Below are positions 7,653 through 59,503 of a DNA stretch of 64,000 bases, piece after piece. The notes below the pieces were generated by a model. That model saw only the letters and a list, made by a program, of their open reading frames with translations, was not told the DNA's origin and made no database searches. Source of the DNA: a bacterium (GTDB lineage Bacteria > Zixibacteria > MSB-5A5 > GN15 > FEB-12); contig JBDRES010000069.1 of NCBI GenBank assembly GCA_043819515.1, positions 35,722-99,721 of the forward strand. The letters run 5' to 3'. The position numbers were made by a program, and so were the translations under genes. Numbering within the stretch: the first letter of the stretch is position 1; each line of letters starts with the position of its first letter.

Positions 7653-7729
7653 CGGCTGCAGTGATATATTGGTGCGAAACCAATCTGTGCCTTTTGTGTT
7701 AGATATAGAAAATAGAGGCGATTGAGGAT

Positions 7730-21104: not shown

Positions 21105-23600
21105 TCAGTTGGCAAAAGCCTCCACGAAACTAGCCAGGTCGACCATCAGCTCCGACGCTTTTTGATAGCGATTCTTTGGTTCCTTTTGCAGAGCCTTCTC
21201 GACGATGTGGTCAAACAGCAGCGGTACCTGTGGGTTGACGTTCGAGGGCTTATCCGGTTGGTGGTTCAGTACCGAGTATATCAGCGAAGTGATGTTCTCA
21301 CCACGGAAGGGCCGCTTGCCCAACAGCAGTTCGTAGATGACCACGCCCAGCGAGAAGATGTCGGCGCGGTTGTCAATCGTCTGGCCGCGAAGTTGCTCAG
21401 GTGAGATATAGTTGGGAGTGCCCATGGCGATACCGGTCTTGGTCATGGAGTGCGATTCTACGCGGGCGATACCAAAATCCATAACCTTGGTCTGGTAATC
21501 CTTGAGGATCATGATATTGGCCGGCTTGATGTCGCGGTGGACTATCTGACGATCATGGGCGTATTGCAGCGCCGAACAGATCTGCATGATGATCTGCGCC
21601 AGGATGCGATAGTTGAACTGCACCTTGCGCTTGATCATATCCTCCAGAGTTTCGCCTTCGAGGTACTCCATGGCGATATACTGAAGTTGTCCTTCCGAGC
21701 CGACGTCGTAAATGGTGACGATATTGGTGTGCGACAGCTTGCCTGCCGCTTGAGCCTCACGATGCAGGCGCTCTTTGAGTTCGGCTTCTTCCTCCGGATC
21801 GTTGACGAAATCCAGACGTATAGTTTTGAGAGCGACCGGTCGATTGATGGCCGGATCGAGGCCGCGGTAGACTTTCCCCATAGCCCCTTTGCCCAGAACT
21901 CCGGTAACTTGATAGCGGCCGAGCGATTTGAGCTGAGTGCCGCCGGACTGAGAGGCGGCTGGTCGAGGCTGATTCGACGTTTTGTCACGAGGCGCGTCGG
22001 TGGTTTCTCGTGAAGGGGTGACGATGGCAGCCTCGGCAGAACGACCGAGTTCCTGGTCATTGCCGATGATATTCAGGTTGCCGCTGTCGTCGGGCGCCGC
22101 GGCCTCCGGGGCAGTAGCCAGGGGTGTTTCTACCTCGCTGCTGTCGTCGAGGGTGATAGCCTGGTAGTCCTGCATCTGTGTCGAGCCATCGGTCACTGCG
22201 ACGGTGTCCTCGGCTGCCAGGGGCCGGCTGTCGATGTGTCGCGTCGGGACATTTTCCGGGTCGGAGACAGAGGCCGGGATTTTGCGTACGGGGACGCTCT
22301 TGGATTTGTCTTTGTCGCCTTGTTTGGCAGCTACTGTTACCGCAGCCATAGCCTCCTCCCGGGCGCCCTTGGCCGCCAGAAGGATGGAATCCAGGAACAG
22401 GGAGGCCGCCATAAACAGCAACAACTCCAGGGCGAAAAACACCGGTTGGATCAGGGTGTTGTTGAAGGCGGCAAAGTAATAGGTGACTCCGACCAGAACC
22501 ACCGTCATCGCCAGGAGCGACAACAGCCGCCGGGCCAGGCGCAGTTGCGGCAGAAAGAAGGCGCCAAGAGCACCGATGGCAAACATGATGATCATGTCCA
22601 CTGCCGCCCGGTCGGTGCGGACAGTGAGCATGTCGTCACTAATGATATTGTCCAGGACACTGGCCGTGACCTGCAGTTTGCTGACCTGCTTACCACCGGG
22701 AATGTCAAACATCACGAGGTCGTCCGGCTGGGCCGCGCCGATCAGTACCATGCGACCTTTGAGGAGCGATCGGTCAAATCCGTCGCTGAGCAGTTCGGCC
22801 GCGGAATAGGTCGTGAAAGCGTCGGCCGGTAAATGTCGGATGTAGTATTCGGAGCCTTTCCCGATTGGGATCGAACGTTGCACTCCGACGAGAATCTTGT
22901 CGTCTTCGACAACCGTAACCTGTTCGGTTGGAATTCTAAAATAGGCTGCCGCCGCGGCCAGGGCCAACGATGGATAATTGTAGCCCTCGTACGTCATCAC
23001 CATCGCTTGCCGCCGCAAAACGCGATCGTCGTCGGGCATCGTGTAATCGAAACCCAGAAGCGGCTTGGCACTAAGAATCTTTCCCGCCGGGAGGAAAACC
23101 TTGCGGACCAGCAGGCTTGAGCGCTCGTCCATGACTCCCAAAGGATTGTCCACCGAAAGAGAGTGGTCAAAGAGGTACTGGGCGGTCTTGGTTTGACTTG
23201 TCCGGTAGGTGGACAAGGCGATATCGTACGGCAAGACGACGTTTTTTATCCAACCAAGTTGTCCGGCCAGCACAGCATTGTGACCGGCCGAATCCTGGAA
23301 GGCGTCTTCACTCAGATCCATGTCGAGGGCGATTGCTCGCGGTTCGCCGGCGGCACTGGCCGCCAATAGATCCGCGACCAAATCACGATCCCACGGCCAG
23401 GCGCCGTACTCCTTCCGGGCCTGCTCGTCAATCATGACCAAACAGACGTTTGGCCCCTCGTTGGTGCTCGTGGTTACGCGGGTCAGCCAGTCATGGATAG
23501 TCTGCTGAAGGCCGCTCATGGGACTGAAGTCATTGATGTATAGAACGACCACCAGAACTGCGATCAAAAGGTACAGTATATATGAGGAGTACTTGCTCAT
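21105..23600 (-). CDS. CHASE2 sensor domain Ser/Thr protein kinase
   Basis: N-terminal TM helix plus an extracytoplasmic CHASE2-like domain, about 3 further TM helices and a low-complexity linker. C-terminal Hanks kinase motifs: GKGAMGKVYRG, VALK, HRDIKPANIM, DFGIA, GTPNYISPE. Start chosen at M19 (MSKYSS..) to avoid overlap with the upstream phosphatase. The alternative start is 23654. Confidence 0.8.
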   Translation of the reverse strand: MSKYSSYILYLLIAVLVVVLYINDFSPMSGLQQTIHDWLTRVTTSTNEGPNVCLVMIDEQARKEYGAWPWDRDLVADLLAASAAGEPRAIALDMDLSEDAFQDSAGHNAVLAGQLGWIKNVVLPYDIALSTYRTSQTKTAQYLFDHSLSVDNPLGVMDERSSLLVRKVFLPAGKILSAKPLLGFDYTMPDDDRVLRRQAMVMTYEGYNYPSLALAAAAAYFRIPTEQVTVVEDDKILVGVQRSIPIGKGSEYYIRHLPADAFTTYSAAELLSDGFDRSLLKGRMVLIGAAQPDDLVMFDIPGGKQVSKLQVTASVLDNIISDDMLTVRTDRAAVDMIIMFAIGALGAFFLPQLRLARRLLSLLAMTVVLVGVTYYFAAFNNTLIQPVFFALELLLFMAASLFLDSILLAAKGAREEAMAAVTVAAKQGDKDKSKSVPVRKIPASVSDPENVPTRHIDSRPLAAEDTVAVTDGSTQMQDYQAITLDDSSEVETPLATAPEAAAPDDSGNLNIIGNDQELGRSAEAAIVTPSRETTDAPRDKTSNQPRPAASQSGGTQLKSLGRYQVTGVLGKGAMGKVYRGLDPAINRPVALKTIRLDFVNDPEEEAELKERLHREAQAAGKLSHTNIVTIYDVGSEGQLQYIAMEYLEGETLEDMIKRKVQFNYRILAQIIMQICSALQYAHDRQIVHRDIKPANIMILKDYQTKVMDFGIARVESHSMTKTGIAMGTPNYISPEQLRGQTIDNRADIFSLGVVIYELLLGKRPFRGENITSLIYSVLNHQPDKPSNVNPQVPLLFDHIVEKALQKEPKNRYQKASELMVDLASFVEAFAN

Positions 23601-23619
23601 AATCCATCCGCTCCAATGC

Positions 23620-24348
23620 TTAGACGCCTGCCGCCAATCGCTTCGCGAGAACATCGGGCAATTGCGCCAGTTTCATCTTCTGTTGGGCCTGCTCAATATC
23701 ATAGTCCACTCGATGATACTCGATGCAGTATTCAGTGTGGTCAAATATTACGTAACATGCGCGCGGGTCGTTGTCCCGGGGCTGCCCGACCGAGCCCACA
23801 TTAATGAGGTAGCGCGCGTCGGGGTCCGGCTCAAAATCATGGGCAGTCCGGGAGCGGGGGCCTCCCGAAGCCATCTCCACAATAATAGTTGGGATGTGGG
23901 AATGGCCGCAGAAGCAAAGTTTCCCCTTTTGATTCTCGAAGGCTCGCATGGCTTCACCGGTATGCAATACGTATCGCCATTGCTCCGGTTCAAAGGGCGA
24001 TCCGTGAACCAGATGCACATCATTCTGAACGTGCTCGAGTTTGAACTGCGCAATAAACTCAAGGTCTTGGCTGCTCAGCATTTGTCTGGTCCACTCGGTG
24101 GCCGCTTTGGCCGCGGGATTGTAGTACTCCAGGGACTGCACACCCAAAACGGCACTCTCGTGGTTACCCATAATCTTTATTTCGCAATGGCTTGCGACCA
24201 GACCGAGGCACTCCCGGGGATTGGCACCGTATCCGATGACGTCGCCCAAGCTGTGGACAACGTCGACTCGGCAGGTGCTGATCTCGGCCAGGACAGCCGT
24301 GAGAGCTTCAAGGTTGCCGTGAACATCTGAGATGAAGGCGGTACGCAT
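23620..24348 (-). CDS. PPP-family metallophosphoesterase (putative Ser/Thr phosphoprotein phosphatase)
   Basis: SDVHGNLEAL, GDVIGYGANP, GNHE and LVHGSP motifs follow the GDxHG / GDxxDRG / GNHE pattern of calcineurin-like phosphatases. Confidence 0.7.
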   Translation of the reverse strand: MRTAFISDVHGNLEALTAVLAEISTCRVDVVHSLGDVIGYGANPRECLGLVASHCEIKIMGNHESAVLGVQSLEYYNPAAKAATEWTRQMLSSQDLEFIAQFKLEHVQNDVHLVHGSPFEPEQWRYVLHTGEAMRAFENQKGKLCFCGHSHIPTIIVEMASGGPRSRTAHDFEPDPDARYLINVGSVGQPRDNDPRACYVIFDHTEYCIEYHRVDYDIEQAQQKMKLAQLPDVLAKRLAAGV

Positions 24349-24351
24349 GGA

Positions 24352-25044
24352 TCACTTGGCCTCTACAAACCTCAATGAAGATTTCCCGATTGAGATAATG
24401 TCGCCGTTTTTCAATTCGTGCCTGGAGATGGCCTCACCATTGACCACGGTTTTGCCCTCACGACCGAGATTGATGAGTTGGTAGGTTTCCCCATCTTTGA
24501 CAATCTTGGCCTGGATCCCCGACAGCCAAAATCCCTTGGTTCGGACATGGACGAACTTGGCCTTGCCAAACGTGGTGACATCGCGATCGAGCTTGTGTTC
24601 GGCGAAGTCGGTATTCTCCAGGCCAACCAGGACCGAGCCGCCATAGTGGCTGACAATTTCGCGCTCGTGTCGATCGTTGGCCAGTAGTTCTTTCTGTTTT
24701 TTGGTGTTCAGCACCATGGTGCCGTCAAAGTCGGCCACGTCTGTGTTCTGATGCTGAACGTCGGCGTGGAAGACCAGGCTATATTTGCCGATAGTGATCA
24801 CGTCGTCATCGTGCAGAATCTCCTCGCTGATCTTGCGACTGTTGACAAAGGTGCCGTTCAGCGATTCGTTGTCGATAAGAACGGCCTCACCCTCATTGAA
24901 CTCGATCAGGGCGTGCTTTCGGGAGACACCGCGGTTTTCGAGCATGATGTCATTGTCATTGGTCCGGCCGATCGAGATCCGCCGTTTTTCAGTGACAATC
25001 CGCTCGATGATTTTGTTTTCAAACTTCACCACTATCTCTGGCAT
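24352..25044 (-). CDS. Tandem FHA-domain protein
   Basis: Two FHA cores: ISIGRTNDNDIMLENRGVSRKHALIE...NGTFVN and TTFGKAKFVHVR...SGIQAKIV...VNGEAI. First gene of the FHA-phosphatase-kinase operon. Confidence 0.8.
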   Translation of the reverse strand: MPEIVVKFENKIIERIVTEKRRISIGRTNDNDIMLENRGVSRKHALIEFNEGEAVLIDNESLNGTFVNSRKISEEILHDDDVITIGKYSLVFHADVQHQNTDVADFDGTMVLNTKKQKELLANDRHEREIVSHYGGSVLVGLENTDFAEHKLDRDVTTFGKAKFVHVRTKGFWLSGIQAKIVKDGETYQLINLGREGKTVVNGEAISRHELKNGDIISIGKSSLRFVEAK

Positions 25045-27343: not shown

Positions 27344-30300
27344 TTACAAGGCCGTCACTGTGAATTCAGCGTAATCCTCCCTGCCGCAGATGTTTACTAC
27401 GCGCAAGGTGATGGTGTATACGCCCGCATTCTGGATGGTAAGAGGCCAAGGCGCCGACTTGGCAGTCGTGGCTTCGTACGATTCGATACTGGCGCCTGTG
27501 CTGTCCTTCAAGGTCCACTGCCACAGCGTAATGAATCCGGTGGTGTCGGCTGAAAAATACGTCAACTGGCCGAACTGAACGGTATTGTCTCCACTTATCG
27601 CGGCGTTGGGAGCTGCGTCCGGAATGACCCGAATGTGTTCGCTCTTGAACTCGAGGTCTGAGTAAATGCCGCTGCTGTCCGTTGCGGTCAGCTGTACATT
27701 GTACAAACCGGCTTCTTGATAAACGAAGGTTGGGTTCTGCTCGTTGGATGTATCCGAAGCGTTGCTGGTGAATTTCCACAGCCATTGGGCCGGATCGCAG
27801 TCGGACAGGTCTGTAAACTGAACCTCCGTCCCGGCACAAACGATAGTGTCTGAGACACTGAATTCGGCCACTACTTGTTGGACACTGATGTAGTTGACGG
27901 AATCGGTGGTAGCCGTGAAGTCCCCCTGCGTGACGGTGAGCCCCACCGTCCTCTTGCCGGTTTGAGTATAAGTGTGCGTTACAACTGAATCGGTGGTCGT
28001 CAAGGTGCTGACGTCGCCAAAGTCCCAGACAAACGAGTCGACCGCACAACCCGGAGTCGCCGTAAATGTTGCTATCATTCCGATACAGCCGGCCGTGTCC
28101 GGGGTAGAGAACGCAGCCGACGGTCCCAGGATCGTAACCTGCCCGTAGGCGGTGTCGCTGCCGTACACGGTAGTGACAACATGCTTGACTATCTGGTTGC
28201 CGACAACATTCATCTCCTTGATCGGTTCAGCATCGGCAACGGCGATGGAATCGTTACCAAAATACCATTCATGCGTGGCGGTGACGCCGACGAGGCAGGT
28301 AGTGTCTTTTAGGGTGAAGGCGATCTCAGTCCCGGAGCAGGTAGTATCCAGACTGGCCGTGAATCCGGCGTCGGGTCCTTCGACATCAATCAGCTTGCTG
28401 CGAAGGCGGCTATGGGTGCTGTCGTCGTCGACCACGATATCGTCGTTGAAAACGGCCGTCAGGATGACAGTAGTCCAGCCGGCGGTTGTGAGAGTGTCTG
28501 TAAAGGGCGGGAAGATGCCACCCTCTTTTTGCTGCAGGCGCGTCTTGAGCGTGTCGCCCGCGTTGTTGAGGTAATACCAGAGGCAGTGTTTGATGTTGGC
28601 CATATCGCGAGAAGTGTTGTGGAAGGTCACCTCCAGCGGCGCGCAACCGTCAACAGCACTGACCCAGAAATTGGCGGCCGGCTTCCAGACCTCGATGAAG
28701 CTGTGCTTGATGGCCGCCACCGAATCCAGTGGTGTCACGATCAACAACCGGACATCATAGAACCCCGGTTTGGTATATGTGTAGCTCGGGTTCTGCTCGA
28801 CGGAAGTATCCGCCAGCGAATTGGGATCACCAAAGTCCCAGAGCCAATTGGTGATCTGGTCTGATGGTTGCGAATTGTCGGTGAAGTGCACCGTGAAGGG
28901 GGCATGGTCAAACTTCCAGTCGGATGCAAATGCTACCTGCGGTCCCAAAGCGCGGATGCTCTTGGTGGCGGTGCTCAGGACCGTGACCGAATCGCGGGCA
29001 TCGATGATTTTCAGGCTAACCTGGAAATCACTAATAGTATCAAAGGTGTGCACTCCGGGATCTTCCAGGATGAGAGTGCTGTCGTCGCCGAAGTCCCATT
29101 CGTAATAGATCGAATCGACATCAGCGCACGTCGACGAATCCATGAAAGTGACGTCTAGTGGCGCAAAACCGCTGTCGATATCGGACCATATTTGCGCCTC
29201 GGGCCCCCAGACCGTCACGACACCGGCCTTGCTTACGGTGTCGACGTGGCCGCGGTGATCCTCGACAATGAGAGTCACGGTGTACACGCCGGGGTTGGCA
29301 TAGGTGTAGTCAAATCCGCCCTGGTTGTCGAGGGTGTCCTCGATTATCCATCTCCAGCTTTCGATGCCGCTCATACTGGTCGAACGATCGGTAAACTCAA
29401 CCGCTAATGGTGCGCAGCCGTCGCTGACGCTGACTTCGAAGTCGGCGTGTGGCGGCGAGTCCTCGGACCACACCGTCAGAGATTTGCTCAGCAGAGCGCC
29501 AAAGAACCTGGGATTGTGCACGCCCCGGGAGCCGTCCGACTGGTACAGCAGATAGTTGTGAAGCACGTCGATCTGCTCGTCGTTGAGATCAGCACCCGGA
29601 TCGAAGCTCCGGCGGGTTGGGTCGTCGGGATCCAGAATTCCCCAGGTAGCCAGCAACTGCCGGAGGCTGTCGGCCAAAATCGGTAGAGAATCATAGTTGG
29701 AGAAGTGAGCCAGCGAATCCAGCCGCCTCAGGGTTGCCGAGTGACAGCCGCTGATCCGACAATTGGTCAAGTACCCTTCGCCGGTCTGTGGGTTGGACAA
29801 CCGGAATGTGTGCTCGCCAAACAGGTAGCCTTGCCCCTTGCCATAGTGGCAGCCGAGACAGCCGTCGGTAACCTTATCGTGGGAATTGGTGTCTGGAGGT
29901 TCCTGACCGAACCAGGCGCCGTTTTTGCCGATCAGGACATCGGCCTGTGGGCTGAAGTGTGGTCCCCAGTCGGCGCTCAGAATGCGTTCGGCCGAGTTTG
30001 AGGGGGCACCGTTCACGGCCTGGTGACACATAGCGCAGGCGTTGGATTTGCCGTGGGCATAGACCGCATTGCCGGCCAGGAGGGTGTAGTCGGATCCGGC
30101 GTCGGCACTGATCCCACGCAAAGAGTCCGACCAGGAGCGGGGATCATCGCCGGTGTGTGGGGCGTGGCAGGTAAAGCACTTGATGACGTTAGGTGATGAC
30201 TGCCCACCGGCAGTGCCTTTGGCAATGTAGTCCAGGAAACCTTCGTGAGTATGGCAGCGTGCTCCGCACTGTGAGGCCAGACCCAACTCACCGTTGATCT

Positions 30301-30535
30301 CCACCGGATGCTGAAGGAGTTCATCGGAAGCGTGGCGTGAGTTCTCGTACTGGCTTTTGGGCCGCAGGTAGCGATTGTAGTCGTCGGTGTGACACGTGAC
30401 ACACTCCTGCCCCAGGGTGCTGTCATACTGGATGACGGTTGTGGACTGGGTGACGAGTTCATCGCAGCCCGGAATGACCAGAACCAGCCCCACGATTGCC
30501 AGGGCCGCAAGCGGCAAAAACGATCTGAGATTCAT
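27344..30535 (-). CDS. Lipoprotein with multiheme cytochrome c domain fused to multiple PKD repeats
   Basis: Lipobox LVIPGC. Four canonical CxxCH motifs (CVTCH, CFTCH, CAMCH, CLGCH) plus CGARCH and CRISGCH variants in the first about 280 aa. At least five repeats carry the PKD signature WxFGDxS (YEWDFGDDS, WLWDFGDPNS, WYFGNDS, FVWDFGDVS, WLWKFTSNAS). Confidence 0.75.
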   Translation of the reverse strand: MNLRSFLPLAALAIVGLVLVIPGCDELVTQSTTVIQYDSTLGQECVTCHTDDYNRYLRPKSQYENSRHASDELLQHPVEINGELGLASQCGARCHTHEGFLDYIAKGTAGGQSSPNVIKCFTCHAPHTGDDPRSWSDSLRGISADAGSDYTLLAGNAVYAHGKSNACAMCHQAVNGAPSNSAERILSADWGPHFSPQADVLIGKNGAWFGQEPPDTNSHDKVTDGCLGCHYGKGQGYLFGEHTFRLSNPQTGEGYLTNCRISGCHSATLRRLDSLAHFSNYDSLPILADSLRQLLATWGILDPDDPTRRSFDPGADLNDEQIDVLHNYLLYQSDGSRGVHNPRFFGALLSKSLTVWSEDSPPHADFEVSVSDGCAPLAVEFTDRSTSMSGIESWRWIIEDTLDNQGGFDYTYANPGVYTVTLIVEDHRGHVDTVSKAGVVTVWGPEAQIWSDIDSGFAPLDVTFMDSSTCADVDSIYYEWDFGDDSTLILEDPGVHTFDTISDFQVSLKIIDARDSVTVLSTATKSIRALGPQVAFASDWKFDHAPFTVHFTDNSQPSDQITNWLWDFGDPNSLADTSVEQNPSYTYTKPGFYDVRLLIVTPLDSVAAIKHSFIEVWKPAANFWVSAVDGCAPLEVTFHNTSRDMANIKHCLWYYLNNAGDTLKTRLQQKEGGIFPPFTDTLTTAGWTTVILTAVFNDDIVVDDDSTHSRLRSKLIDVEGPDAGFTASLDTTCSGTEIAFTLKDTTCLVGVTATHEWYFGNDSIAVADAEPIKEMNVVGNQIVKHVVTTVYGSDTAYGQVTILGPSAAFSTPDTAGCIGMIATFTATPGCAVDSFVWDFGDVSTLTTTDSVVTHTYTQTGKRTVGLTVTQGDFTATTDSVNYISVQQVVAEFSVSDTIVCAGTEVQFTDLSDCDPAQWLWKFTSNASDTSNEQNPTFVYQEAGLYNVQLTATDSSGIYSDLEFKSEHIRVIPDAAPNAAISGDNTVQFGQLTYFSADTTGFITLWQWTLKDSTGASIESYEATTAKSAPWPLTIQNAGVYTITLRVVNICGREDYAEFTVTAL

Positions 30536-30734
30536 CTATGAATTTTCCTTTGTAAGCGGTCTCATGCCCACGTTATATAAGCGGCCCCGGCGGGAGTGTC
30601 AATTGTTTACTACGTTGTACCCCGCGCAGTTGCGCCCGTTCCCCGGAGAACGGCCTGAGCTGCGGTTTCAGGTGGTCAAGATCAGTGGCTATTCGGTCGA
30701 ATAGTACCAAAAGAGCTTTTTTTTTGGAGTAATT

Positions 30735-33266
30735 ATGTCAGTCATGATCGAGATCCTTGAATGGGTCGACCCGACCGGCGATGAGATGATCTACCGCATT
30801 CCGCAGGAGGGCTCGGCCGACATTAAGATGGGCGCGCAGTTGATTGTCCGGGACAGTCAGATGGCCATGTTTTTCCACAACGGCCACGTGGCCGATTCAT
30901 TTACAACCGGTCGTCACTCGTTGTCGACCCACAACCTGCCGATTATCACGCGGCTGCTGGCTTTGCCGTTTGGATTTAAGTCACCGTTCCGGGCGGAAGT
31001 CTATTTTGTCAATCAAAAAGTGTTCACAGATCTCAAGTGGGGCACCAAGCATCCGGTCACATTCAAAGACAGCAAGTTGGGCCTCATTCGCTTGCGCGGC
31101 CACGGCGCCTTTACAATGCAGATAGAGAATCCAATGCTGTTTCTCAATTCCATCGTCGGTCGCCAGGCCCGGTACACGACGGCCGACATACAATCTTATC
31201 TGCGCGATGTCATCATTGCTCGTCTGAACGACCTGCTGGGTGAGGAGTTGGAATCGGTTCTGGATTTGCCGGCGGTATATACTGAACTGGCCGAGAAGTT
31301 CAAGAATGTGGTGCACCGGGAATTCGACAAGTATGGTCTCGAATTGGTCGATTTCTACATTGCCTCCATCACCCCTCCGGACGAAGTCGCCAAACTCATC
31401 GACCAGCGGTCCGGCATGGAGGCGGTTGGTGATGTCGACAAGTTCCTCAAATTCGAAATGGCCCGGGGCCTCGGCGCTCCTGGCGGTCCCGGCGGGGCCG
31501 GAGCCGGTATTGGTATGGCTGCTGGAGTTGGCGTCATGATGCCGAGTCTGATGAACCGTGTTTTTGCTCCCGAGCAGACCGATTTGAAGCGGGAGCCGGT
31601 TTCTACCGTGGCCTGTCCCAAGTGCCATACCGAGACACCCGAACAATCACGCTTTTGTTATCGCTGTGGCCATCAGATGATCGCCCTAAACACCTGTCCG
31701 TCATGCAACAACGAGCTGCCACCGGAGGCCAGCTTCTGCCTGCATTGCGGTCAGAAGCTCAACGCCCGGCATATGTGTCCGCACTGTAAGGCCGAGATAA
31801 TAATGGGATCCCGGTTCTGCGGTTCGTGCGGCAAGCAAATCGAGGCCGATGACACACCCTCAACGACAGCCAGTAATCAGAGCGGCTTTTATATCGGCCT
31901 GGGTTGCCCCGGCTGCGGGGGCGAGGTAAGGCAGCAAGAGGATTTTTACGTTTTGACCTGCGGTCATTGCGGGTCGGTCCTGCGGGTGCGAATGCCGGAT
32001 CAGCCCCCGGCCTTTATGGTCTCGGCCCGAATCGATGCCGGCCAGGCCAGATTCCATATTGATCGCTTTCAGAAGAAGCAGGCGGCGCCACTTACCAACC
32101 CCGGTCTTCAGTACAAGTTCCTGTACTATCCGTACTGGAAGGTCGACGCCATCATGCTCAAGCTTCGTAATCGGGTCGAAGAACGCGTTTACGTTACCGA
32201 ATCCGGTGAAGGCGGGTCAATCGAGCACCGCACCGAGACCCCCACCACCAACATCAACCTGGTGCCCTACATGACCACTGTTCCGGCCGGCCCGGAAATG
32301 AGTGGTAGACCGCCATCGATCGGCTCACGGGCTGATTATATCAAGTTGGTGCCGTACAGCCGGGAGAACACGCAGGATGGATTTGATTCGCTGCCCATCT
32401 CCCGGACCTGGGCCGAGGTATGGGAGGAACTGAACAAGAAAGTTCGGGCTGTGGGGACCATCGAGACGGCCGGCTTCGGCCGCAATCGTACGGAGATGTT
32501 CAGGCCGCTGCCACGACTCGTCTATTATCCCCTGGTGGTGGCCGAGCAGTATGGCCACAGTTCATTTGATCGGTGGGTACTTGACGGGCTCAGCGGCCGC
32601 GTGGTTGATCATCGTCACACCATCCCTGAGGATAGTATTACCTCCGAGGAAATGCCGGTGGTCAAATTTGGTGAGTTGGAGATTGATTTCCATCGTTGTC
32701 CGAACTGCGGCGATGATCTGCCGGCGGACGACGCTTGCCTGTGTATCTGTACGAACTGCGATCAAGTGATCAATCTCGATCTGCAATCGCGTGCTCCGGA
32801 CAGCATAGATATCGTCGATGGCCCGGTCGACAGCACCGCCGAGCTGTTTCCATTTTGGGTATTGGATTTGCCGCCTTCAGACGAAGCCACGCTGCGGGCG
32901 GTAGTCGGCGGACTGTTTGAGTCGACCAGCCTGGTGGTGCCGGCCTTTCGCATGTCTGGTTTTGACGGCTGCTATCGCCTGGCTCGGCGCATGTCGACGG
33001 CTCATCCGCGATTGCCGCTCCGGCCGCTGGATACTCATCAGGAGCGGCCCCACGCCGTCAATGTGAGTTTCTCCGAAGCGCTACTGATGGGCCAACTGAC
33101 CCTTTACCGCGCTCGCCTGTCTCAGAATCCCGACCAGGCGCTTGTCTGCCGGAGTCTCGAACCCGGCCGGGTCAGGCTGCTTTACGTCCCTTTCCAGAGG
33201 CAAGCTTACTTCTTTGTTGATACCGTCACAGATTCGGTGACCTTCGAAAAGAAACTCATCTCTTAG
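30735..33266 (+). CDS. SPFH/Band-7 (YdjI-like, PF13421-type) domain protein fused to three zinc-ribbons and a large C-terminal domain
   Basis: N-terminus IEILEWVDPTGDEMIYRIP...KMGAQLIVRDSQMAMFF...FKSPFRAEVYFVNQKVFTDLKWGT matches my recollection of the Bacillus YdjI SPFH family. Then CPKCH..CYRCG, CPSCN..CLHCG and CPHCK..CGSCG double zinc ribbons, and further CxxC pairs (CPGCGG..CGHCG; CPNCG..CTNCD) in a C-terminal region of about 450 aa. Confidence 0.7.
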   Translation: MSVMIEILEWVDPTGDEMIYRIPQEGSADIKMGAQLIVRDSQMAMFFHNGHVADSFTTGRHSLSTHNLPIITRLLALPFGFKSPFRAEVYFVNQKVFTDLKWGTKHPVTFKDSKLGLIRLRGHGAFTMQIENPMLFLNSIVGRQARYTTADIQSYLRDVIIARLNDLLGEELESVLDLPAVYTELAEKFKNVVHREFDKYGLELVDFYIASITPPDEVAKLIDQRSGMEAVGDVDKFLKFEMARGLGAPGGPGGAGAGIGMAAGVGVMMPSLMNRVFAPEQTDLKREPVSTVACPKCHTETPEQSRFCYRCGHQMIALNTCPSCNNELPPEASFCLHCGQKLNARHMCPHCKAEIIMGSRFCGSCGKQIEADDTPSTTASNQSGFYIGLGCPGCGGEVRQQEDFYVLTCGHCGSVLRVRMPDQPPAFMVSARIDAGQARFHIDRFQKKQAAPLTNPGLQYKFLYYPYWKVDAIMLKLRNRVEERVYVTESGEGGSIEHRTETPTTNINLVPYMTTVPAGPEMSGRPPSIGSRADYIKLVPYSRENTQDGFDSLPISRTWAEVWEELNKKVRAVGTIETAGFGRNRTEMFRPLPRLVYYPLVVAEQYGHSSFDRWVLDGLSGRVVDHRHTIPEDSITSEEMPVVKFGELEIDFHRCPNCGDDLPADDACLCICTNCDQVINLDLQSRAPDSIDIVDGPVDSTAELFPFWVLDLPPSDEATLRAVVGGLFESTSLVVPAFRMSGFDGCYRLARRMSTAHPRLPLRPLDTHQERPHAVNVSFSEALLMGQLTLYRARLSQNPDQALVCRSLEPGRVRLLYVPFQRQAYFFVDTVTDSVTFEKKLIS

Positions 33267-33306: not shown

Positions 33307-33340
33307 GGGAGGCGCTGCCGCCTCTGGATTTGTCTTGCGG
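33307..33340 (+). terminator. Putative terminator after SPFH-zinc-ribbon gene
   Basis: GAGGCG-CTGC-CGCCTC hairpin followed by TGGATTTGTCTTG. Confidence 0.35.
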
Positions 33341-33486: not shown

Positions 33487-36150
33487 TTGGTGGGGACAAC
33501 AGTGAATAGAAAATCGGCGTCACTATTAGCCCTGACAATCTTGCTGGCCCTCAGTACCGTCCAGGCTCAGTCGGTCCTGCCCAAGCCCGCGGCGGCACCC
33601 GATTCCGGGTATACCAGTAACGCCGCCACCGACGTCGCCTTGCACGGCGGCGGTATATGGATGGCCACCGATGAAGGCGCCCAGGTGACCTACGATCAGG
33701 GGCAGACCTGGCTGCGGATCGGCCAGGGCACCGGGTTGATCAGCGAAATCGTCTCGGCCATATACTCGAGCGGGACGCGGCTGTGGATGGGAACCAGTCA
33801 CTCGCAGATGTATGATGGCGGCCGATACGCCTACTCCGATGGTGTTTCCTTCAGTGATGACAACGGGACTACCTGGCATCATATCGATTTTTCCGAGAGT
33901 GGACAGAACATCGATTGGGTAAGTGGTGTCTCCCGAACCGTTTTTGACATCACCGGCCACATCGATGAGGATCAAGATGCGGAGTGGGTTGTCTTTGCGG
34001 CTTTTGCCGGCGGCTTTCTGGCATCTCGCGATGGCGGCCTCAACTGGCGACGGATTTTCCCGACCACCATCGACTCGGTTCAATTCGTTTTTGGAGGTAC
34101 GCCCTCGGAGAGGAACCGCGCCTTCTCCTGCGTGGCTGATACCTCGCGCGGCGACACGTTGTACTTGTGGACCGGGACTGCCGAGGGGATTTTCCAGTAT
34201 ATCTTTGCTACGCCGAAACAGAAACCGCATTCAAAGCACATCAATCGGATTGCCTTTTGTGACGAATGCCCCGATTCGAGTTGGGTGTTTTATGGCGGCC
34301 ACGACGGTTTCACGCGCGGGCTGACCACCGGCCGTCCGTATATCAGTCGCCTGGAAGAAGACGGCTTGCCGGGGCCGGCGATCTCGGCTCTGATTGATTT
34401 CCGCGGCCGCTTGCTGGTGGCCACCTATGATGATGCCACCGATCTGTTCACCGGCCTGGCCTGGTCGGATGATCGCGGCGAGTCGTTTCAAAGCGACGAT
34501 CATCCGGTGACGTCTTACAACGGTCGATTTGCCGGTGGTGAAGCGCTGGTCACAGATTTTGCTGCTGTTAGAGAACGGCTGTACCTGGCCGGTGGTGCTA
34601 ACGGGCTTTTTGTTTCGTCCGACTCCGGGCTGACGTGGGATGACATTCTCGTAGATTCCTCGGCCGCATCCAGTCTGCTCAACTCCGCCAACGCACTTTT
34701 TGCTGACGGCGACACGCTCCTGGTTGGTACGGACTCAGGCTTGGCCAGCCTCTTTCTTGATCCGTTGGGAGTCATCGATTCCTCCCGGTTCCATGTCTTT
34801 GGCGAATTTGATTCCAGCGCTTTCCATGTCGGCTCGACTCGCGTGATGCGGGTACGCGTGCAAAAATTCTCTGACGATGACACCGGCGAACTGGATTCTA
34901 TGGCCTACTGGACTGTCAATCAGCCGTTGACCTCGGAGGGACGCAGGATGGTGGGCAGGAACAATCCTGACTCCAGCCTCTGGAACCACTATCAATGGCG
35001 GGCTAAGAGCATTGACGTAAACTTTATTGGAGACACCGCCATTGTCATGGGTGAGGATGGCATCTGGTTCACATCCGACGGGGGCAACCCCGGAGCCAAG
35101 TTCGCCATTGAGGAGCATTCCGGGGGCAATACTGTCGATTCTTTTGGCAACGATGTCGTGACGACGATGGAAGTCATGGGTGATACCGTCGCCTTTGGAT
35201 CCAACAACGGCTTCGCAATCTCAACCAACCGGGGCGCTGATTTCGATGTGGTTCGAGTCAACACCGATCCCCTCAAGGCGGATCTGGTCATACACCATTT
35301 GGCCAGTCAGACGGCGTTCGAAGGACTCACCGGCGATTTTGTCCCGGCTCTTGATGTTCAGTATGTCGATGGTCAGCCGGCCCGCGTTTGGGCTTCCAAT
35401 CGCAGTACCGCCTACTGGCCGGACAGCAACGCCATCTCAGTGGGACAAGTGATGGAAGTGGACGCAGACGGGGAGTATGTGCCGCTGGGCTCGGCCGATT
35501 CGGTAAATGGTTATGTCTGGGTCTGGGATCGCGTCTATAACAAGACTTTCGCCTGGAATCACGCCTTCTATGGTGATTCGGTTTTTGCCGCCACCGACAG
35601 CGGCCTGGTGCTGTTGGAGCCCAACGAAACGGCGACGGTCTGGACAGCAACAGAAATACCTCTTGAAAACGAAAACGGTGAACCCTGGCTCGCGGCCGGC
35701 ACTTCTGTCTACGGCGTTGAAGTGCAACCACCGTACTTGTGGGTGGGTACGGATGATCGCACGCTGCGTCTGCGGCTGGATGACCTCGGTGATCAGACGG
35801 TCTACCAGGTCATCGATTCGACCACTCCGCCGGACGAAGTCTACGCTTTCCCAGTGCCTTATAGCCACGCTATGGATGGCGCCAGTGGTGGACTGCTCGA
35901 CTTTCACTTTGTCCTGGACCGGCCGGCCGACGTAACCATTACTGTTTACGATTTTGCTATGAACAAAGTGGCCACGGTGATCGAGAATCAACCGTTCCCG
36001 GCCGGGATTTACCCGTCGAGCGGATCGCTGCGTCCCCGTTGGAACGGTATCAATGACAAGGGCGATCAGGGGGCCGTGGGAGTTTACTATTTTAAGGTAG
36101 AGTACTCGACCGGCGAAACTTACTGGGGTAAACTGGCCCTGATCCCATAA
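33487..36150 (+). CDS. Secreted BNR/Asp-box repeat protein with T9SS/FlgD-Ig-like C-terminal domain
   Basis: Signal peptide. Repeated S-x-D-x-G-x-T-W Asp-boxes (SDDNGTTWHH, SRDGGLNWRR, SSDSGLTWDD, TSDGGNPG). C-terminal about 100 aa beta-sandwich (VTITVYDFAMNKVATV...GVYYFKVEY) resembles T9SS sorting / FlgD-Ig domains. Confidence 0.6.
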   Translation: MVGTTVNRKSASLLALTILLALSTVQAQSVLPKPAAAPDSGYTSNAATDVALHGGGIWMATDEGAQVTYDQGQTWLRIGQGTGLISEIVSAIYSSGTRLWMGTSHSQMYDGGRYAYSDGVSFSDDNGTTWHHIDFSESGQNIDWVSGVSRTVFDITGHIDEDQDAEWVVFAAFAGGFLASRDGGLNWRRIFPTTIDSVQFVFGGTPSERNRAFSCVADTSRGDTLYLWTGTAEGIFQYIFATPKQKPHSKHINRIAFCDECPDSSWVFYGGHDGFTRGLTTGRPYISRLEEDGLPGPAISALIDFRGRLLVATYDDATDLFTGLAWSDDRGESFQSDDHPVTSYNGRFAGGEALVTDFAAVRERLYLAGGANGLFVSSDSGLTWDDILVDSSAASSLLNSANALFADGDTLLVGTDSGLASLFLDPLGVIDSSRFHVFGEFDSSAFHVGSTRVMRVRVQKFSDDDTGELDSMAYWTVNQPLTSEGRRMVGRNNPDSSLWNHYQWRAKSIDVNFIGDTAIVMGEDGIWFTSDGGNPGAKFAIEEHSGGNTVDSFGNDVVTTMEVMGDTVAFGSNNGFAISTNRGADFDVVRVNTDPLKADLVIHHLASQTAFEGLTGDFVPALDVQYVDGQPARVWASNRSTAYWPDSNAISVGQVMEVDADGEYVPLGSADSVNGYVWVWDRVYNKTFAWNHAFYGDSVFAATDSGLVLLEPNETATVWTATEIPLENENGEPWLAAGTSVYGVEVQPPYLWVGTDDRTLRLRLDDLGDQTVYQVIDSTTPPDEVYAFPVPYSHAMDGASGGLLDFHFVLDRPADVTITVYDFAMNKVATVIENQPFPAGIYPSSGSLRPRWNGINDKGDQGAVGVYYFKVEYSTGETYWGKLALIP

Positions 36151-36156
36151 GAGGAG

Positions 36157-37161
36157 ATGATACGGATGCAATCTAGACAGCTTATTGCGACGGCCCTGAT
36201 CCTATTGCTGACGGCCGCTGTCTCCTCCGCGGTGGCAGGTGATGGCGACGGTGGTTATGCCGGGTCTTTTCTTCAGATGCCGATTGGAGCCCGGCCGGCC
36301 GCTATGGGCGGCGCTTACCTGGCCGTTTCCAATGACGGCGCCGGGGTGCTGTACAATCCGGCTGGCTTGACTTCCTTGCAACGCCCGATGCTGGCCACTT
36401 CTTATCGTCTGATGAAACTCGATCGCAAACTGGGTTATGCTACCGCCATGCTGCCGGCGCGTGGCAATTCCGTGATCGGTTTGCATTGGCTTTATGGCGG
36501 ATCCGGATCGGTTGAGCGACGCAATTACGACGGCGATGCTCTGGGTGACCAGATCAGCATGAACTCTCATGCTTTTTCGATCATATTTGCCAAACGCTTT
36601 GAGAGTGCCTTTTCGGCCGGAGTGAAGATGAACTATCTGCACTCGCAATTTGCCGAAATGTCGGCCTATTCGGTCGGCATCGATTTTGGCGTTATGTTCT
36701 ATCTCGACCACCTCTTTGGACGCGAGAAAGTCGGGTTACTGCCGATTGATGATGCGCAAGTGGGAATTACCCTCAATAACCTGGACGCCACCTACAACTG
36801 GAATAACGAAGCGTACGTTCACAAACACATCAGCGGCAGCGGCGTAGGCACCGAGCAAGCGGATGAAATCCCGATGGAATTTGGGCTGGGCTTGTCGGGG
36901 CGTTTGATGCAACGCAAGCTGTTGCTGGCGACCGACCTGATCAAGAACGCCAAGCAGGGAGCGGAACTTCACGCCGGGGCCGAGTATTTTGTGAAACCGG
37001 AGTTTGCCTTCCGGGGTGGTTTTTCCGACGGCCGCCTGACCGCGGGGACCGGCTACGTGTTTAGAATCGGCAGCCAGACTCTTGCGATCGATTACGCCTT
37101 CTCGACCGACAAAGCCGATGAAGGCTCCGAGCACATATTCTCTTTTGACCTCCTCTTCTGA
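36157..37161 (+). CDS. PorV/FadL-like outer-membrane beta-barrel protein (T9SS-associated family)
   Basis: Signal peptide, then the conserved N-terminal motif GARPAAMGGAYLAVSNDGAGVLYNPAGL shared by PorV/PorQ/FadL-type barrels. Alternating amphipathic strands and a C-terminal aromatic residue. Confidence 0.5.
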   Translation: MIRMQSRQLIATALILLLTAAVSSAVAGDGDGGYAGSFLQMPIGARPAAMGGAYLAVSNDGAGVLYNPAGLTSLQRPMLATSYRLMKLDRKLGYATAMLPARGNSVIGLHWLYGGSGSVERRNYDGDALGDQISMNSHAFSIIFAKRFESAFSAGVKMNYLHSQFAEMSAYSVGIDFGVMFYLDHLFGREKVGLLPIDDAQVGITLNNLDATYNWNNEAYVHKHISGSGVGTEQADEIPMEFGLGLSGRLMQRKLLLATDLIKNAKQGAELHAGAEYFVKPEFAFRGGFSDGRLTAGTGYVFRIGSQTLAIDYAFSTDKADEGSEHIFSFDLLF

Positions 37162-37170
37162 GGTGAGACG

Positions 37171-38079
37171 ATGAAGGTACTAAAATTCAGTCTCTTGGTA
37201 GCCGGCTTGGTTGTCACCATGAATGCGTCCGGAGTCGCTTCCGATGCCGGTCTGGCTCTGCTTACCAACGAGTATTCCGCCCGACCGGCGGGGATGGGTG
37301 GCGCGGCAGTTTCGATTCTGTCCGATCCCAACGCCATTTGGTACAACCCGGCTGCGGCGGTCGGACTGGACACGTTTACGGCTTCATTCGGCCATACGGT
37401 TTTCTGGGAGAATATCCGCTTCGAGTCCGGTTGCTTTGGAATCGGCTTGTCGCCCAGATTCTACCTGCATGGTGGCATTCGCATGGCCACCATCGACGAT
37501 ATCGAGCAACGGGGTGAAGTACCGACAACCCAACCGGAAGCGTTGTTTGGATCGCACGATATCTCCGGCAAACTAGGTTTGGCTTATCGGATGAGCGACG
37601 ACGTCGCTGTAGGGGCGGCCATTGGATGGATGTTTGAGGAAATCGAATCCTGGCGCGGGTCGGAGTTCAACGTCGATGTGGGTGTGAATGTCACGCCACG
37701 TATCGAGGGCCTCACCCTGGGTGCCGCCGTCACCGGCCTGGGCGGCGACATGGCTATCACCAAAGAAGGGACTATCGGTTCGCGCGAAATCCCCTTGCCG
37801 ACAACCTATCGATTCGGCGGTTCATATACTTATCGCTGGCTGCGCGGCGCGGCCGATTTGGTTTATCTCGATGACCAGGCCCACGCCCACCTGGGAGTCG
37901 AGGGCACTGTGTCAAAAGAACTCAATCTTCGCGCCGGCTACATGTCCGGCTATGATACTCGCAACATCACGGCCGGAGCGTCATTCGCATATCGCAACGT
38001 GCGCGTCGACTATGCCTTCCTGCCGTATTCTGATAATCTCGGAACAAGTCACCTGTTTAACGTAACGTTTAGTCTTTAG
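37171..38079 (+). CDS. PorQ/PorV-like outer-membrane beta-barrel protein (paralog of upstream gene)
   Basis: Signal peptide plus SARPAGMGGAAVSILSDPNAIWYNPAA motif. Ends ..NVTFSL. Tandem paralog of the upstream barrel. Confidence 0.5.
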   Translation: MKVLKFSLLVAGLVVTMNASGVASDAGLALLTNEYSARPAGMGGAAVSILSDPNAIWYNPAAAVGLDTFTASFGHTVFWENIRFESGCFGIGLSPRFYLHGGIRMATIDDIEQRGEVPTTQPEALFGSHDISGKLGLAYRMSDDVAVGAAIGWMFEEIESWRGSEFNVDVGVNVTPRIEGLTLGAAVTGLGGDMAITKEGTIGSREIPLPTTYRFGGSYTYRWLRGAADLVYLDDQAHAHLGVEGTVSKELNLRAGYMSGYDTRNITAGASFAYRNVRVDYAFLPYSDNLGTSHLFNVTFSL

Positions 38080-55284: not shown

Positions 55285-56412
55285 CTAATCTTCGATCATC
55301 TCAACATTGGCTCGGGGAACAATCACGCGTTCGCCGCTCTCCAGTTTTACTTCCAGTACTCGTGCTTTGGATTCCGATTCCAGCACCTGCAGCGGAGCCG
55401 GCAGGTCGACAACATCACCGAGCTGGCCGAAATAGGGGTGGCGGATGACGCGGATCGGTGATCCGGCCGTCAGACCCTTGATCTCAGCCGCCTTGGCATC
55501 GTCGACAGCCGTGGTTGTATCCTTGGCGGGGATAACCACTTCCGGCCTGATGACGCCGGCGCGGATTTGGGTGGCCCCGTTGATGCAGGCCTTTTCGCCT
55601 TCATGGGCTTTGAGCAGGTTGAAGGTTTTGCCGGCCATGTTGATCTGACCAAAACCTTCTGTCACCACCAGGGTGATGCCTTTGTCCTCAGCGCCGGTAA
55701 TGGCCACACCGATATCATACCCCAAAAAGTCGCGCAGGTCCTTGTCATCAAAGCCACCAACGACGATACCTTTGGCACCAACTTGTATCGCCTTTTTCAG
55801 GGCCTCGGCCGTTACCAACGAACCGCCGACAATCACCTGACCTTTCATTTGGTCGGTGATCAGCTTCTCGTCGAGTACGGTCGCATTGTCGGGCGTGGCC
55901 ATCATGATGTTGCCCGAGGTCTCACCGCCGATACCAAAAATCCCTTGCATAAACGAACCATAGCAGGACACCACCACGCCTTCTTCCGGGATTACTTCCG
56001 TGACCTGGCCGCTGAGGTACGCCTTGACCTCAACCGGAATGGGTTCGCCGCGCTGCAGCACTTGACCGGTCACTTTGGAAATCGACTCGATGGTTCCGCC
56101 GATGGTCGCCTCGCAGGAGGAGGAAAACCACTTGATGAACGACTTTTTGAGGGCGATGACTTCTCCTTGTTCCATGGAATCGCCGACCTTTTTGGTCATC
56201 ACCAAGTCAATATCTTCCGGCGGAATGCTGAGCTTATTGGCGACATTGAGGGGGACAACATTACCGGGCAGGTGCGTCCGCGCGATGACGTCTTCGGGGG
56301 TGACCCGGTCGCCGACCTTCACCACCACTTCGCCCTTGAGGGGCAGGATTCGTCTTTTCTCAACCAGATGTCTTTCCGTGACCTTCAGTCCCGGAGTATA
56401 GGCATGAGCCAT
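55285..56412 (-). CDS. Hypothetical protein, putative partner of MutL/GlmL-family ASKHA protein
   Basis: 375 aa with a Gly-rich core (GIFGIGGETSGNIMMA, GAKGIVVGGFDD, AITGAEDKGITLVVTEGFG). Family not recognised. Confidence 0.45.
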   Translation of the reverse strand: MAHAYTPGLKVTERHLVEKRRILPLKGEVVVKVGDRVTPEDVIARTHLPGNVVPLNVANKLSIPPEDIDLVMTKKVGDSMEQGEVIALKKSFIKWFSSSCEATIGGTIESISKVTGQVLQRGEPIPVEVKAYLSGQVTEVIPEEGVVVSCYGSFMQGIFGIGGETSGNIMMATPDNATVLDEKLITDQMKGQVIVGGSLVTAEALKKAIQVGAKGIVVGGFDDKDLRDFLGYDIGVAITGAEDKGITLVVTEGFGQINMAGKTFNLLKAHEGEKACINGATQIRAGVIRPEVVIPAKDTTTAVDDAKAAEIKGLTAGSPIRVIRHPYFGQLGDVVDLPAPLQVLESESKARVLEVKLESGERVIVPRANVEMIED

Positions 56413-56431
56413 CTGATTTCCTTTCTATATA

Positions 56432-57313
56432 TCAGCTTCGTTTTTTCCGTTTACGTCGGGCTACGGTTATGATGACGACAAGGACTCCGATCAAGACGAC
56501 AACCGGTATACTTCCGCTGGTTTCGGATTTGCCGCTTCCCGGTTCGTATTCTGACCGTTCCGGCAGAGCAGCGTCGGTGACTTTCACTTCCTCCCGCGGA
56601 GCCGCCGCCTCGATATTCTCGGTGGACAATGATGCCACGACTTGTTGCATGGTCTGAAGGCCGTCTTCGAACAGCGAGTCCGGGGCATAGTAAAAGAAGG
56701 TCGCAATCCCCTTTTCGTAAAATCGCAACATGACTAGACTGCGTTTGACGGTCCCGCCGGCGATTCCAATCTCATTCATGACCGAGGCGACCTTCAGCTC
56801 GGGATCGTACGAGGGGGAGTTGGCCCGAAGATTGGCCAGAAGCTTGGCCACCGGAAAGTAATTCAGCTCAGAGTTGAAGGTGCTGAAAAGATCCTCCATA
56901 ACCGAGTCAATCTCAGGCTCGTTGAGTTCGCCGACCGTATCGACCGTCAGGACGAAATACTCCCCATCATAGAAAGCCTCGTGGAGGGTGTCGGCAAAGA
57001 CGGCGTCGTAGTCCAGGATGGCATCGCCGGCTTGATTGATCATTAGATAGGCGTCGGCCTTGGCGTAGTCGATCTGCCTCCAGGCCTCCGGGTAGCTGAT
57101 ATAGAAACCACCCTTCCACGACACGTGATTTCGCGCCGAAGCGGTTGTCGCCAGAGCCGCAATCATAGTTAAGTACAACAATGCGGCTCCGAGTAGCCAT
57201 CCAGAGCGCTTTGTCTTCATAATAATCCTCGCCAATTTCTCATCCACCAACGACAGGTTCCGGGCGACTTCTACAGCCGATCGGTCGGGTAAATATCCAA
57301 TTCCCTCATCCAT
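56432..57313 (-). CDS. Hypothetical membrane-anchored protein (signal peptide + C-terminal TM helix with polybasic tail)
   Basis: Internal Met at 57220 gives MKTKRSGWLLGAALLYLTMIAALA, a signal-like N-terminus. C-terminus ...EPGSGKSETSGSIPVVVLIGVLVVIITVARRKRKKRS. Confidence 0.4.
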   Translation of the reverse strand: MDEGIGYLPDRSAVEVARNLSLVDEKLARIIMKTKRSGWLLGAALLYLTMIAALATTASARNHVSWKGGFYISYPEAWRQIDYAKADAYLMINQAGDAILDYDAVFADTLHEAFYDGEYFVLTVDTVGELNEPEIDSVMEDLFSTFNSELNYFPVAKLLANLRANSPSYDPELKVASVMNEIGIAGGTVKRSLVMLRFYEKGIATFFYYAPDSLFEDGLQTMQQVVASLSTENIEAAAPREEVKVTDAALPERSEYEPGSGKSETSGSIPVVVLIGVLVVIITVARRKRKKRS

Positions 57314-59118: not shown

Positions 59119-59503
59119 TACCTTTTCCTGCTATATTGCACCGTCACGTTTTTTCGTATCAGTATGGGTGGCACCATGATAGACATCGCCAGGCGCGCCC
59201 AAACGGCGCCCCCCAAGCCCAAGATTATAACACATGCCGGTAGGGATGTAAAGAGCCATCGGGACCGCTGCCGCCATTTTTTGGAGCTGCCGGTTGGGTC
59301 CCGTTGGGTGGTTCGGTGGCGGCTCGGTCGCCCGGACCGGAATGACGTGCTCCAGACTTCGGACGACCGGTGCGGGGCGGCAGTACAGCTTTTGAGATTC
59401 TCGGGGCGACATCAGCTTTCTCGTTCGTCTCGCCTGGTGTTGTTTGCGTCGAATGCTAACGACAAGCGGCACAAACAAATACGGAGAGCGTTGCCTTTTT
59501 TCA

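Follow-up and report, generated by a model that had tools for sequence, protein, structure and literature searches.

We analyzed a 64-kb stretch of DNA (hereafter, the window) from a metagenome-assembled contig of the Zixibacteria organism FEB-12 and studied an open reading frame (ORF) at positions 30735–33266 of the forward strand, which runs unbroken from ATG to stop for 843 codons. The ORF joins two proteins that the relatives encode separately: a YdjI-type SPFH protein ending in zinc ribbons and a partner protein with a core resembling YdjG-like proteins. In most relatives the partner gene begins inside the end of the SPFH gene, in another frame. We consider it likely that the 843-codon ORF is the two cistrons of this conserved bicistronic module read as one: with one base fewer in the overlap, the SPFH frame passes its own stop and runs into the partner frame. 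The features of the locus, with protein positions in amino acids (aa), are the following.

30726..30729, + strand: Shine–Dalgarno-like GGAG, 5 nt 5′ of the ATG of the ORF, read straight from the sequence
30735..33266, + strand: 843-codon ORF of merged genes, in which the SPFH+ribbon gene continues in frame into the YdjG-like partner gene
30789..31421, + strand: Band_7_1 (YdjI-type) SPFH domain, aa 19–229 (Pfam PF13421)
31455..31589, + strand: Gly/Ala/Met-rich low-complexity segment, aa 241–285, the most hydrophobic stretch of the protein
31614..31829, + strand: three four-cysteine (Cys4) zinc ribbons, aa 294–311, 321–338 and 348–365, from CxxC positions and Pfam models (DZR, Zn_Ribbon_1 and others)
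31849..31851, + strand: vestigial partner ATG, in frame +1 relative to the ORF, opening just 26 codons; homologous to gene 2's start codon in loci L001, L004 and L005
31852..31873, + strand: stretch short by one base in comparison with relatives, from the junction alignment
31863..33263, + strand: partner portion, aa 377–843 (467 aa), counterpart of stand-alone proteins of ~470 aa
31874..31876, + strand: vestigial TAA of the SPFH gene, in frame +2 and read through; offset –10 from a conserved GF codon, as is the stop of L001
31896..32624, + strand: YdjG-like core, aa 388–630, made of one zinc ribbon (aa 391–412) and a helix/long-beta-hairpin domain apparently of the YpeB/NTF2-like kind
32697..32759, + strand: fifth zinc ribbon, aa 655–675, after an invariant H-R
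32760..33263, + strand: C-terminal alpha/beta domain with no family match, in the place of the transmembrane helix of canonical YdjG-like proteins
33308..33325, + strand: terminator-like hairpin 3′ of the ORF, from a consensus scan, with a weak T tail

By direct count the ORF contains 10 CxxC motifs forming five Cys4 ribbons, three of them following the SPFH domain and two lying farther on. Kyte–Doolittle profiles in 19-residue windows over all 843 aa gave no value above 1.6, that is, no transmembrane segment, and a scan for sigma-70 promoters upstream of the ORF returned no match. The full-length search found the fused protein (P0001, the window's own) once, on one 104-kb contig, as the sole full-length match.

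The N-terminal domain matched Band_7_1 (PF13421) with an E value of 2.1e-67 and 227.2 bits against a cut-off of 24, along profile positions 1–210 of 211. An earlier note, made from the sequence alone, had recognized the unbroken frame and the YdjI-type SPFH domain at its N terminus, and both hold. It had further described three double zinc ribbons fused directly after the domain, against the separate zinc-ribbon protein YdjG of B. subtilis. The CxxC count resolves them into three single ribbons, on which the DZR model (PF12773) matched at E 4.4e-22 in three overlapping stretches and the ribbon models together span aa ~291–372. A reading of them as a fused YdjG was rejected: the N-terminal 375 aa have 120 listed stand-alone SPFH+ribbon orthologues, all 370–405 aa long and 74–80% identical, none longer, and the post-SPFH ribbons are present in every one. 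Judged by these orthologues, the three ribbons are the SPFH protein's own C-terminal tail. The SPFH half has no N-terminal transmembrane segment in its Kyte–Doolittle profile and in this fits the soluble type, which makes up two of the twelve subfamilies in the 2009 classification of SPFH proteins (PMC2636767). Its best 19-residue window (1.43, at aa 255) lies below the score of a transmembrane segment and falls within the low-complexity segment at aa 241–285, a possible membrane-contact element. PADLOC, run on each half, gave no defence-system match.

The partner half (aa 377–843) matched no family in Pfam, NCBIfam, the PDB sequences or PADLOC; the PDB sequence and profile searches returned only ribbon-sized matches, and no NfeD or ClpP model of Pfam matched even at E ≤ 1. 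The earlier note was right to describe this C-terminal region as carrying two more CxxC pairs, now seen to be two ribbons, and as lacking a family; it is this unassigned region that constitutes the YdjG-like part. Its stand-alone homologues comprise 104 clusters at 32–70% identity, nearly all full length and 441–527 aa long besides one 385-aa and one partial 452-aa entry, and it is 70% identical to the protein P0002 over the full length. A profile search among 1.84 billion cluster representatives found 1108 relatives at E ≤ 1e-3, including full-length members at ~20% identity with the same two-ribbon layout. The second ribbon is located at about aa 260–340 in every distant member, most at 250–290, and the invariant columns of the Zixibacteria partner alignment (A2) are H277, R278, C279, C282, C296 and C299. 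On 55 distant members, Pfam gave zinc-ribbon models only.

An AlphaFold2 model of the partner, built with 103 homologues, reached a predicted local distance difference test score (pLDDT) of 88.9 and a predicted template-modeling score (pTM) of 0.84. It shows, in order, a zinc ribbon, two units of a helix plus a very long beta-hairpin, the second ribbon and the C-terminal alpha/beta domain. A Foldseek search of the model against the PDB found nothing significant (best E 0.016, template-modeling score <0.12); the matches to pore toxins were due only to the long beta-hairpins and were set aside, and the best structural match of the partner core was YpeB. An internal duplication was also considered and rejected, the match between the N and C halves of the partner being confined to the ribbon.

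The partner proteins share the conserved motifs YYPYWKVDA, VYFPY, VDGxTGRV and LFPFW. We searched plasmid records using tblastn and, as bait, an approximate sequence of B. subtilis YdjG, which is not the exact database sequence and was never used as evidence; it retrieved 12 real full-length homologues. Five real YdjG-like proteins were aligned (A9) and compared using hhalign with the Zixibacteria partner set (A2) and a distant partner set (A3). The Zixibacteria set matched at 96.8% (E 2.8e-10, 238 columns), placing partner aa 12–254 on YdjG-like aa 70–338, and the distant set at 98.3% (E 1.9e-14). The N half of the partner alone matched at 97.1% (E 6.1e-11) and the C half at its ribbon only. 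By these profile alignments the partner core is homologous to YdjG-like proteins, the YdjG label of the five being based on architecture, gene context and the published description of a YdjG-like layout, namely two zinc ribbons, a YpeB-related NTF2-like domain and a C-terminal transmembrane helix (PMC11237479). Across 158 partner-family members the Kyte–Doolittle 19-residue maximum is at most 1.9, with the top listed windows internal and not C-terminal. Judging from the aligned sequences, the partner appears to have lost the family's C-terminal membrane helix and to carry, in exchange, another zinc ribbon and an additional alpha/beta domain.

The gene context of the YdjG-like proteins agrees between genera. 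At all five loci, which come from cultured bacteria (Enterococcus, Comamonas, Vibrio, Paracoccus and Tsukamurella; L171–L175), a Band_7_1 gene is the immediate upstream neighbour of the YdjG-like gene, and in Enterococcus (L171) a TPM-domain gene comes after the YdjG-like gene, like YdjH in B. subtilis. The tails of the five Band_7_1 proteins differ, with DZR in Enterococcus, HTH_17 in Comamonas and GYF_2 in Vibrio, Paracoccus and Tsukamurella, and the C-terminal tail of Band_7_1 proteins seems to be an exchangeable adaptor. The Enterococcus gallinarum record (NZ_CP116511.1, 484 kb) is entered as a plasmid, but its SPFH/YdjG-like/TPM cluster is surrounded by dnaX, recR, tmk and genes for ribosomal proteins, and the record looks like chromosomal sequence.

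The abundance of ribbons raises a different role for the partner, that of a zinc-ribbon nucleic-acid-binding or regulatory protein with no tie to the membrane, which the SPFH protein would merely regulate or sequester. Five Cys4 ribbons suit such a role, as do the lack of a transmembrane segment in either half and the HTH_17 and GYF_2 tails of Band_7_1 partners in other phyla, and homologues of the partner family have been automatically named ribosomal or RNA-polymerase ribbon proteins. Those names, however, reflect the ribbon motif only; the core shares homology with YdjG-like proteins that are membrane-anchored, and YdjG, YdjH and YdjI of B. subtilis act at the membrane (PMC8581546). We regard this role as unlikely and continue to treat the partner as a YdjG-family protein.

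A scan of one genome per species gave 80 loci, all in Zixibacteria-type metagenome-assembled genomes (MAGs), which together with L001–L006 make 86. In all 86 the SPFH+ribbon gene stands directly upstream of the partner gene, and where the SPFH gene is complete its product is 65–86% identical to that of the window. The usual layout is an SPFH+ribbon gene of ~375 aa followed by a partner gene of ~470 aa. Of roughly 80 junctions that could be parsed, ~70 have the partner gene in the +1 frame, overlapping the SPFH gene by 8–32 nt, always 3n+2; this arrangement is kept across relatives, with the length and sequence of the overlap varying. Three loci (L048, L051 and L052) have both genes in one frame with a stop between them, and one or two, such as L056 with another relative frame, are arranged otherwise. 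The closest relative (L001), with 86% identity in the SPFH half and 70% in the partner half, is unfused and has the same downstream genes, and L004, a Zixibacteria genome of 3.5 Mb, and L005/L006 have two genes with a 26-nt overlap.

The pairing extends to a distant partner subgroup at ~20% identity, for which a metagenome scan with 12 members fetched 80 loci, ~65 of them informative. Where the upstream sequence exceeds 300 nt, a same-strand SPFH+ribbon gene, unfused, lies just upstream at nearly every locus, and these SPFH+ribbon genes are 47–53% identical. The exceptions to adjacency are one locus with the SPFH gene 4.4 kb off (L110) and one without it (L090); single-locus look-ups agree with the adjacency of the two genes. 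Among the ~165 related loci read across the junction, Zixibacteria-type and distant lineage together, none has a fusion by frame merger. The distribution indicates that the SPFH–partner pair is old and tightly linked and that the fusion is a singleton. The kept +1-frame overlap suggests that translation is coupled and that the two proteins are made in roughly equimolar amounts. Relatives may also make a low-level fusion product by +1 frameshifting; a shared slippery motif was not seen by eye in the overlap of ~80 junctions, of which no formal search was made.

Two of the loci have irregular SPFH genes. In L003, a 620-aa ORF at 477–2339 (P0003) joins SPFH aa 1–135 in frame to the middle of the partner's first ribbon, without the rest of the SPFH domain and without all three SPFH ribbons; this reflects either the in-frame deletion of a large segment or a chimeric assembly of the 3.9-kb contig. 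In L016, at 4742–5996, the SPFH gene is split over two frames, with tblastn matching aa 1–278 in one and aa 277–372 in another, and this frameshift in a very conserved gene is probably an assembly error or a pseudogene.

The junction of the window retains the signals of both genes. The closest relative's SPFH gene ends in ...EADDDKSGDSK and its stop, and its partner begins with MTTSPATANNQSGFY 29 nt ahead of that stop, in the +1 frame. The junction as assembled in the window reads GATGACACACC. From the partner ATG to the SPFH TAA the distance is 25 nt in the window, 26 nt in L001 and 23 nt in L004 and L005; modulo 3, the relatives all give 2 and the window gives 1. By alignment, the absent base is the G of a common GATGACG (GATGAC-G-ACA), between 31853 and 31854 and not within a homopolymer, and adding one base would bring back both separate genes. 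No other locus shows this single-base cause of fusion. As assembled, the two halves would be connected by a probably flexible linker of ~15–20 residues, about KQIEADDTPSTTASNQS, and in the AlphaFold2 partner model the residues on its partner side are predicted to be disordered.

The same observations bear on whether the base is truly absent from the organism. An error in sequencing, in assembly or in calling the strain consensus of this metagenome-assembled contig could have deleted it, the organism having the usual two overlapping genes. We think the chance of such an artefact falls not far short of even. Consistent with it, the fused protein was met once, on one contig, no related locus read across the junction is merged in this way, and the canonical ATG and TAA are intact at homologous positions, one inserted base restoring both genes. 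The frameshift of the L016 MAG in the highly conserved SPFH gene also demonstrates that indel defects occur in such data. The position of the base speaks for a real loss, as it lies outside a homopolymer, and a random error has a low prior of hitting a 22-nt stretch of a 2.5-kb locus; indels at the junction have, moreover, been fixed naturally elsewhere, as in the loci having both genes in one frame plus a stop or the partner in another frame. The in-frame join through a linker leaves both proteins intact, which also counts for a real event. Finally, the window is densely coding, with ~50 long intact ORFs, four syntenic neighbours of the expected length and no other broken genes, and gives no sign of a high indel error rate. 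Weighing these, we lean slightly to the assembled sequence being correct, put a consensus error somewhat under an even chance and leave a small share to a real but harmful mutation.

In that last case, the read-through product would be non-functional and the locus in decay. The canonical partner start now opens 26 codons only, and the next in-frame start to spare the partner's first ribbon, the ATG at 31803, falls within the SPFH protein's third ribbon, so the partner would have no ready start of its own. Such decay is nevertheless very improbable: the 467-codon partner frame is fully open and retains its 70% identity to P0002 over the full length, the in-frame linkage spares both proteins, unlike most frameshifts, and the linker is predicted to be disordered.

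If the base has truly been lost and the fusion product is functional, the ORF would be a natural Rosetta-stone fusion, implying direct, one-to-one binding of YdjG-family adaptors by Band_7_1 SPFH proteins. The module would then be an ancient two-protein SPFH system without a neighbouring PspA gene, in which a double-ribbon variant lacking the transmembrane helix builds a sub-membrane scaffold with no integral membrane subunit. We hold this to be possible, though clearly below an even chance. In the mechanism we propose, gene 1 encodes a soluble YdjI-type SPFH protein and gene 2 a YdjG-family partner without the membrane helix, and the overlap of the genes would provide coupled, roughly equimolar synthesis. 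The SPFH protein would oligomerize beneath the membrane and bind the partner, the latter through its ribbons, its NTF2-like surfaces or both, with the ribbons and the putative NTF2-like domain probably serving as protein–protein adaptors. By analogy with YdjG, YdjH and YdjI of B. subtilis, the two proteins would form an SPFH-based scaffold under the cytoplasmic membrane, its membrane contact coming from the hydrophobic low-complexity segment or from another partner protein. If the sequence is correct, the fusion would be a covalently tethered form of the SPFH–partner complex.

Several points weigh against this scheme. We infer direct contact between the SPFH protein and its partner from gene order, and a two-hybrid analysis in B. 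subtilis reported YdjI binding YdjH and PspA, not YdjG (PMC8581546). Neither half has a transmembrane segment, which makes membrane association a prediction. The absent base could be an assembly or consensus error, and the fusion is unique, the closest relative being unfused. The YdjG-like genes used for comparison were found with the approximate bait described above. Lastly, neither PspA nor a TPM domain came up when all non-overlapping ORFs of 100 aa or longer in the window were scanned with Pfam; among the neighbours listed for relatives, PspA was likewise absent by L004, L005/L006 and L087, and TPM was absent too.

This last result also concerns the interpretation of the earlier note, in which a PspA-linked, multi-gene ydjFGHI membrane-stress module may have been condensed into a single polypeptide; taken in full, this would be a dedicated multidomain architecture under selection. 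The part of the claim that stands is that two components of the ydjGHI type, one YdjI-like and one YdjG-like (hhalign 96.8–98.3%), share one frame, and a natural fusion would be tolerable given that both parts lack transmembrane segments and the linker is disordered by prediction. The PspA-linked setting fell away, since no PspA and no TPM/YdjH part occurs in the ORF, in the window or beside the pair in relatives. The evolved architecture did not stand either: it recurs neither in the related loci nor among the 120 listed SPFH orthologues and the 104 partner homologues, the closest relative has two genes, and the vestigial start and stop signals are still there, as left by a merger of frames through one base. 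We give little credence to an evolved condensation and retain the reading of the ORF as two cistrons of one module.

On one side of the pair, which stands alone, is a divergent PKD/multihaem-like gene, and on the other a conserved cluster encoding proteins of secreted or outer-membrane type. The former, at 27344–30535 on the reverse strand, encodes a 1063-aa protein with six or more PKD repeats, the N terminus of which has a weak match to MtrC/MtrF-like multihaem cytochromes (E 5e-4, below the cut-off); a shorter PKD protein replaces it in L005, and the position is the same in relatives. The cluster, at 33487–38079 on the forward strand, encodes proteins of 887 aa (with a FlgD_ig-like C-terminal domain), 334 aa and 302 aa (weakly FadL/TodX-like), none of them of clear family; L001 and L005 share the cluster in synteny, and an isocitrate/isopropylmalate dehydrogenase gene comes next. 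A signalling cluster on the reverse strand at 21105–25044 encodes an 849-aa CHASE2-Ser/Thr kinase, a 242-aa calcineurin-like phosphoesterase and a 230-aa protein carrying two FHA domains. On the forward strand at 4599–10492 there are two large secreted-type peptidases, a subtilase of the S8 family (1017 aa) and an M6 immune-inhibitor-A-like peptidase (920 aa), both terminating in sorting domains of the FlgD_ig/Por_Secre_tail type, which suggests a type IX-like secretion signal in the FEB-12 organism. At 55285–60999, several ORFs without a family flank the gene for a glutamate-mutase-type "MutL" protein (PF13941, 615 aa), and opposite this gene lies that of a DUF6754 protein (461 aa, E 4e-125).

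SPFH proteins organize membrane microdomains and stress responses, and B. subtilis is the only organism in which the soluble YdjI type is understood. The YdjI/YdjG/YdjH/PspA system is already published. New here are a large branch of the YdjG family without the transmembrane helix and with two ribbons, which comprises more than 1000 sequence clusters and is not covered by any Pfam model; the near-obligate linkage of this branch, with no PspA, to SPFH+three-ribbon genes in Zixibacteria and in one more metagenomic lineage that is unclassified; and a single fused instance. In the sampled loci, the two genes of the Band_7_1/YdjG-like pair sit immediately side by side, with no PspA, in Bacillota, Pseudomonadota, Actinomycetota, Zixibacteria and the unclassified metagenomic lineage. 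If the fusion is real, it would be direct genetic evidence for physical contact between SPFH and YdjG proteins, unreported in the B. subtilis two-hybrid analysis. If it is an artefact, it illustrates that single-base errors in metagenome-assembled genomes can make "novel architectures" out of overlapping genes.

Among known systems, the closest comparison for gene 1 is YdjI (SamI) of B. subtilis, which has a region of low complexity as well as a zinc finger and no hydrophobic anchor (PMC8581546; zinc finger also PMC11237479). The two proteins are alike in the Band_7_1 domain, in lacking a transmembrane segment, in the low-complexity region followed by a C-terminal zinc ribbon and in having a YdjG-family gene adjoining. 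The protein here has three ribbons, whereas the literature gives a C-terminal zinc-finger/ZnR region for YdjI without a count. [quoted passage not shown] In contrast with that PspA-YdjGHI (SamGHI) operon, neither the operon nor the window here has a PspA or a TPM (YdjH) gene, and the SPFH gene precedes the YdjG-like gene, the order in B. subtilis being pspA-ydjG-ydjH-ydjI.

In both the partner and the YdjG-like proteins, a ribbon comes ahead of a core of ~240 residues that is homologous between them and bears the motifs Y-x-P-[YF]-W and [DN]-G-x-[TS]-G-x-V, and both are encoded directly downstream of a Band_7_1 gene. They differ in the number of ribbons ahead of the core, which is one in the partner and two in YdjG-like proteins. 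At the C terminus, all five YdjG-like proteins reach a Kyte–Doolittle maximum of 2.2–2.8, corresponding to the transmembrane helix, while that of the partner does not exceed 1.9 anywhere; in the place of the helix the partner has the extra ribbon and an alpha/beta domain of ~170 aa without a Pfam model.

SPFH genes typically come with an operon partner dedicated to them (PMC2636767), and the module resembles the SPFH–NfeD pairs (stomatin/QmcA/YqfA) in that an SPFH scaffold gene is tightly coupled with such a partner in a conserved two-gene operon. It differs from them in that the partner has no NfeD/OB-fold or ClpP-like domain by Pfam and the SPFH protein is of the soluble type. Compared with Rosetta-stone fusions in general, the window offers a single occurrence that stems from one absent base and still has the old start and stop; as in those fusions, the two proteins are separate and co-encoded in most genomes and form one chain in one genome.

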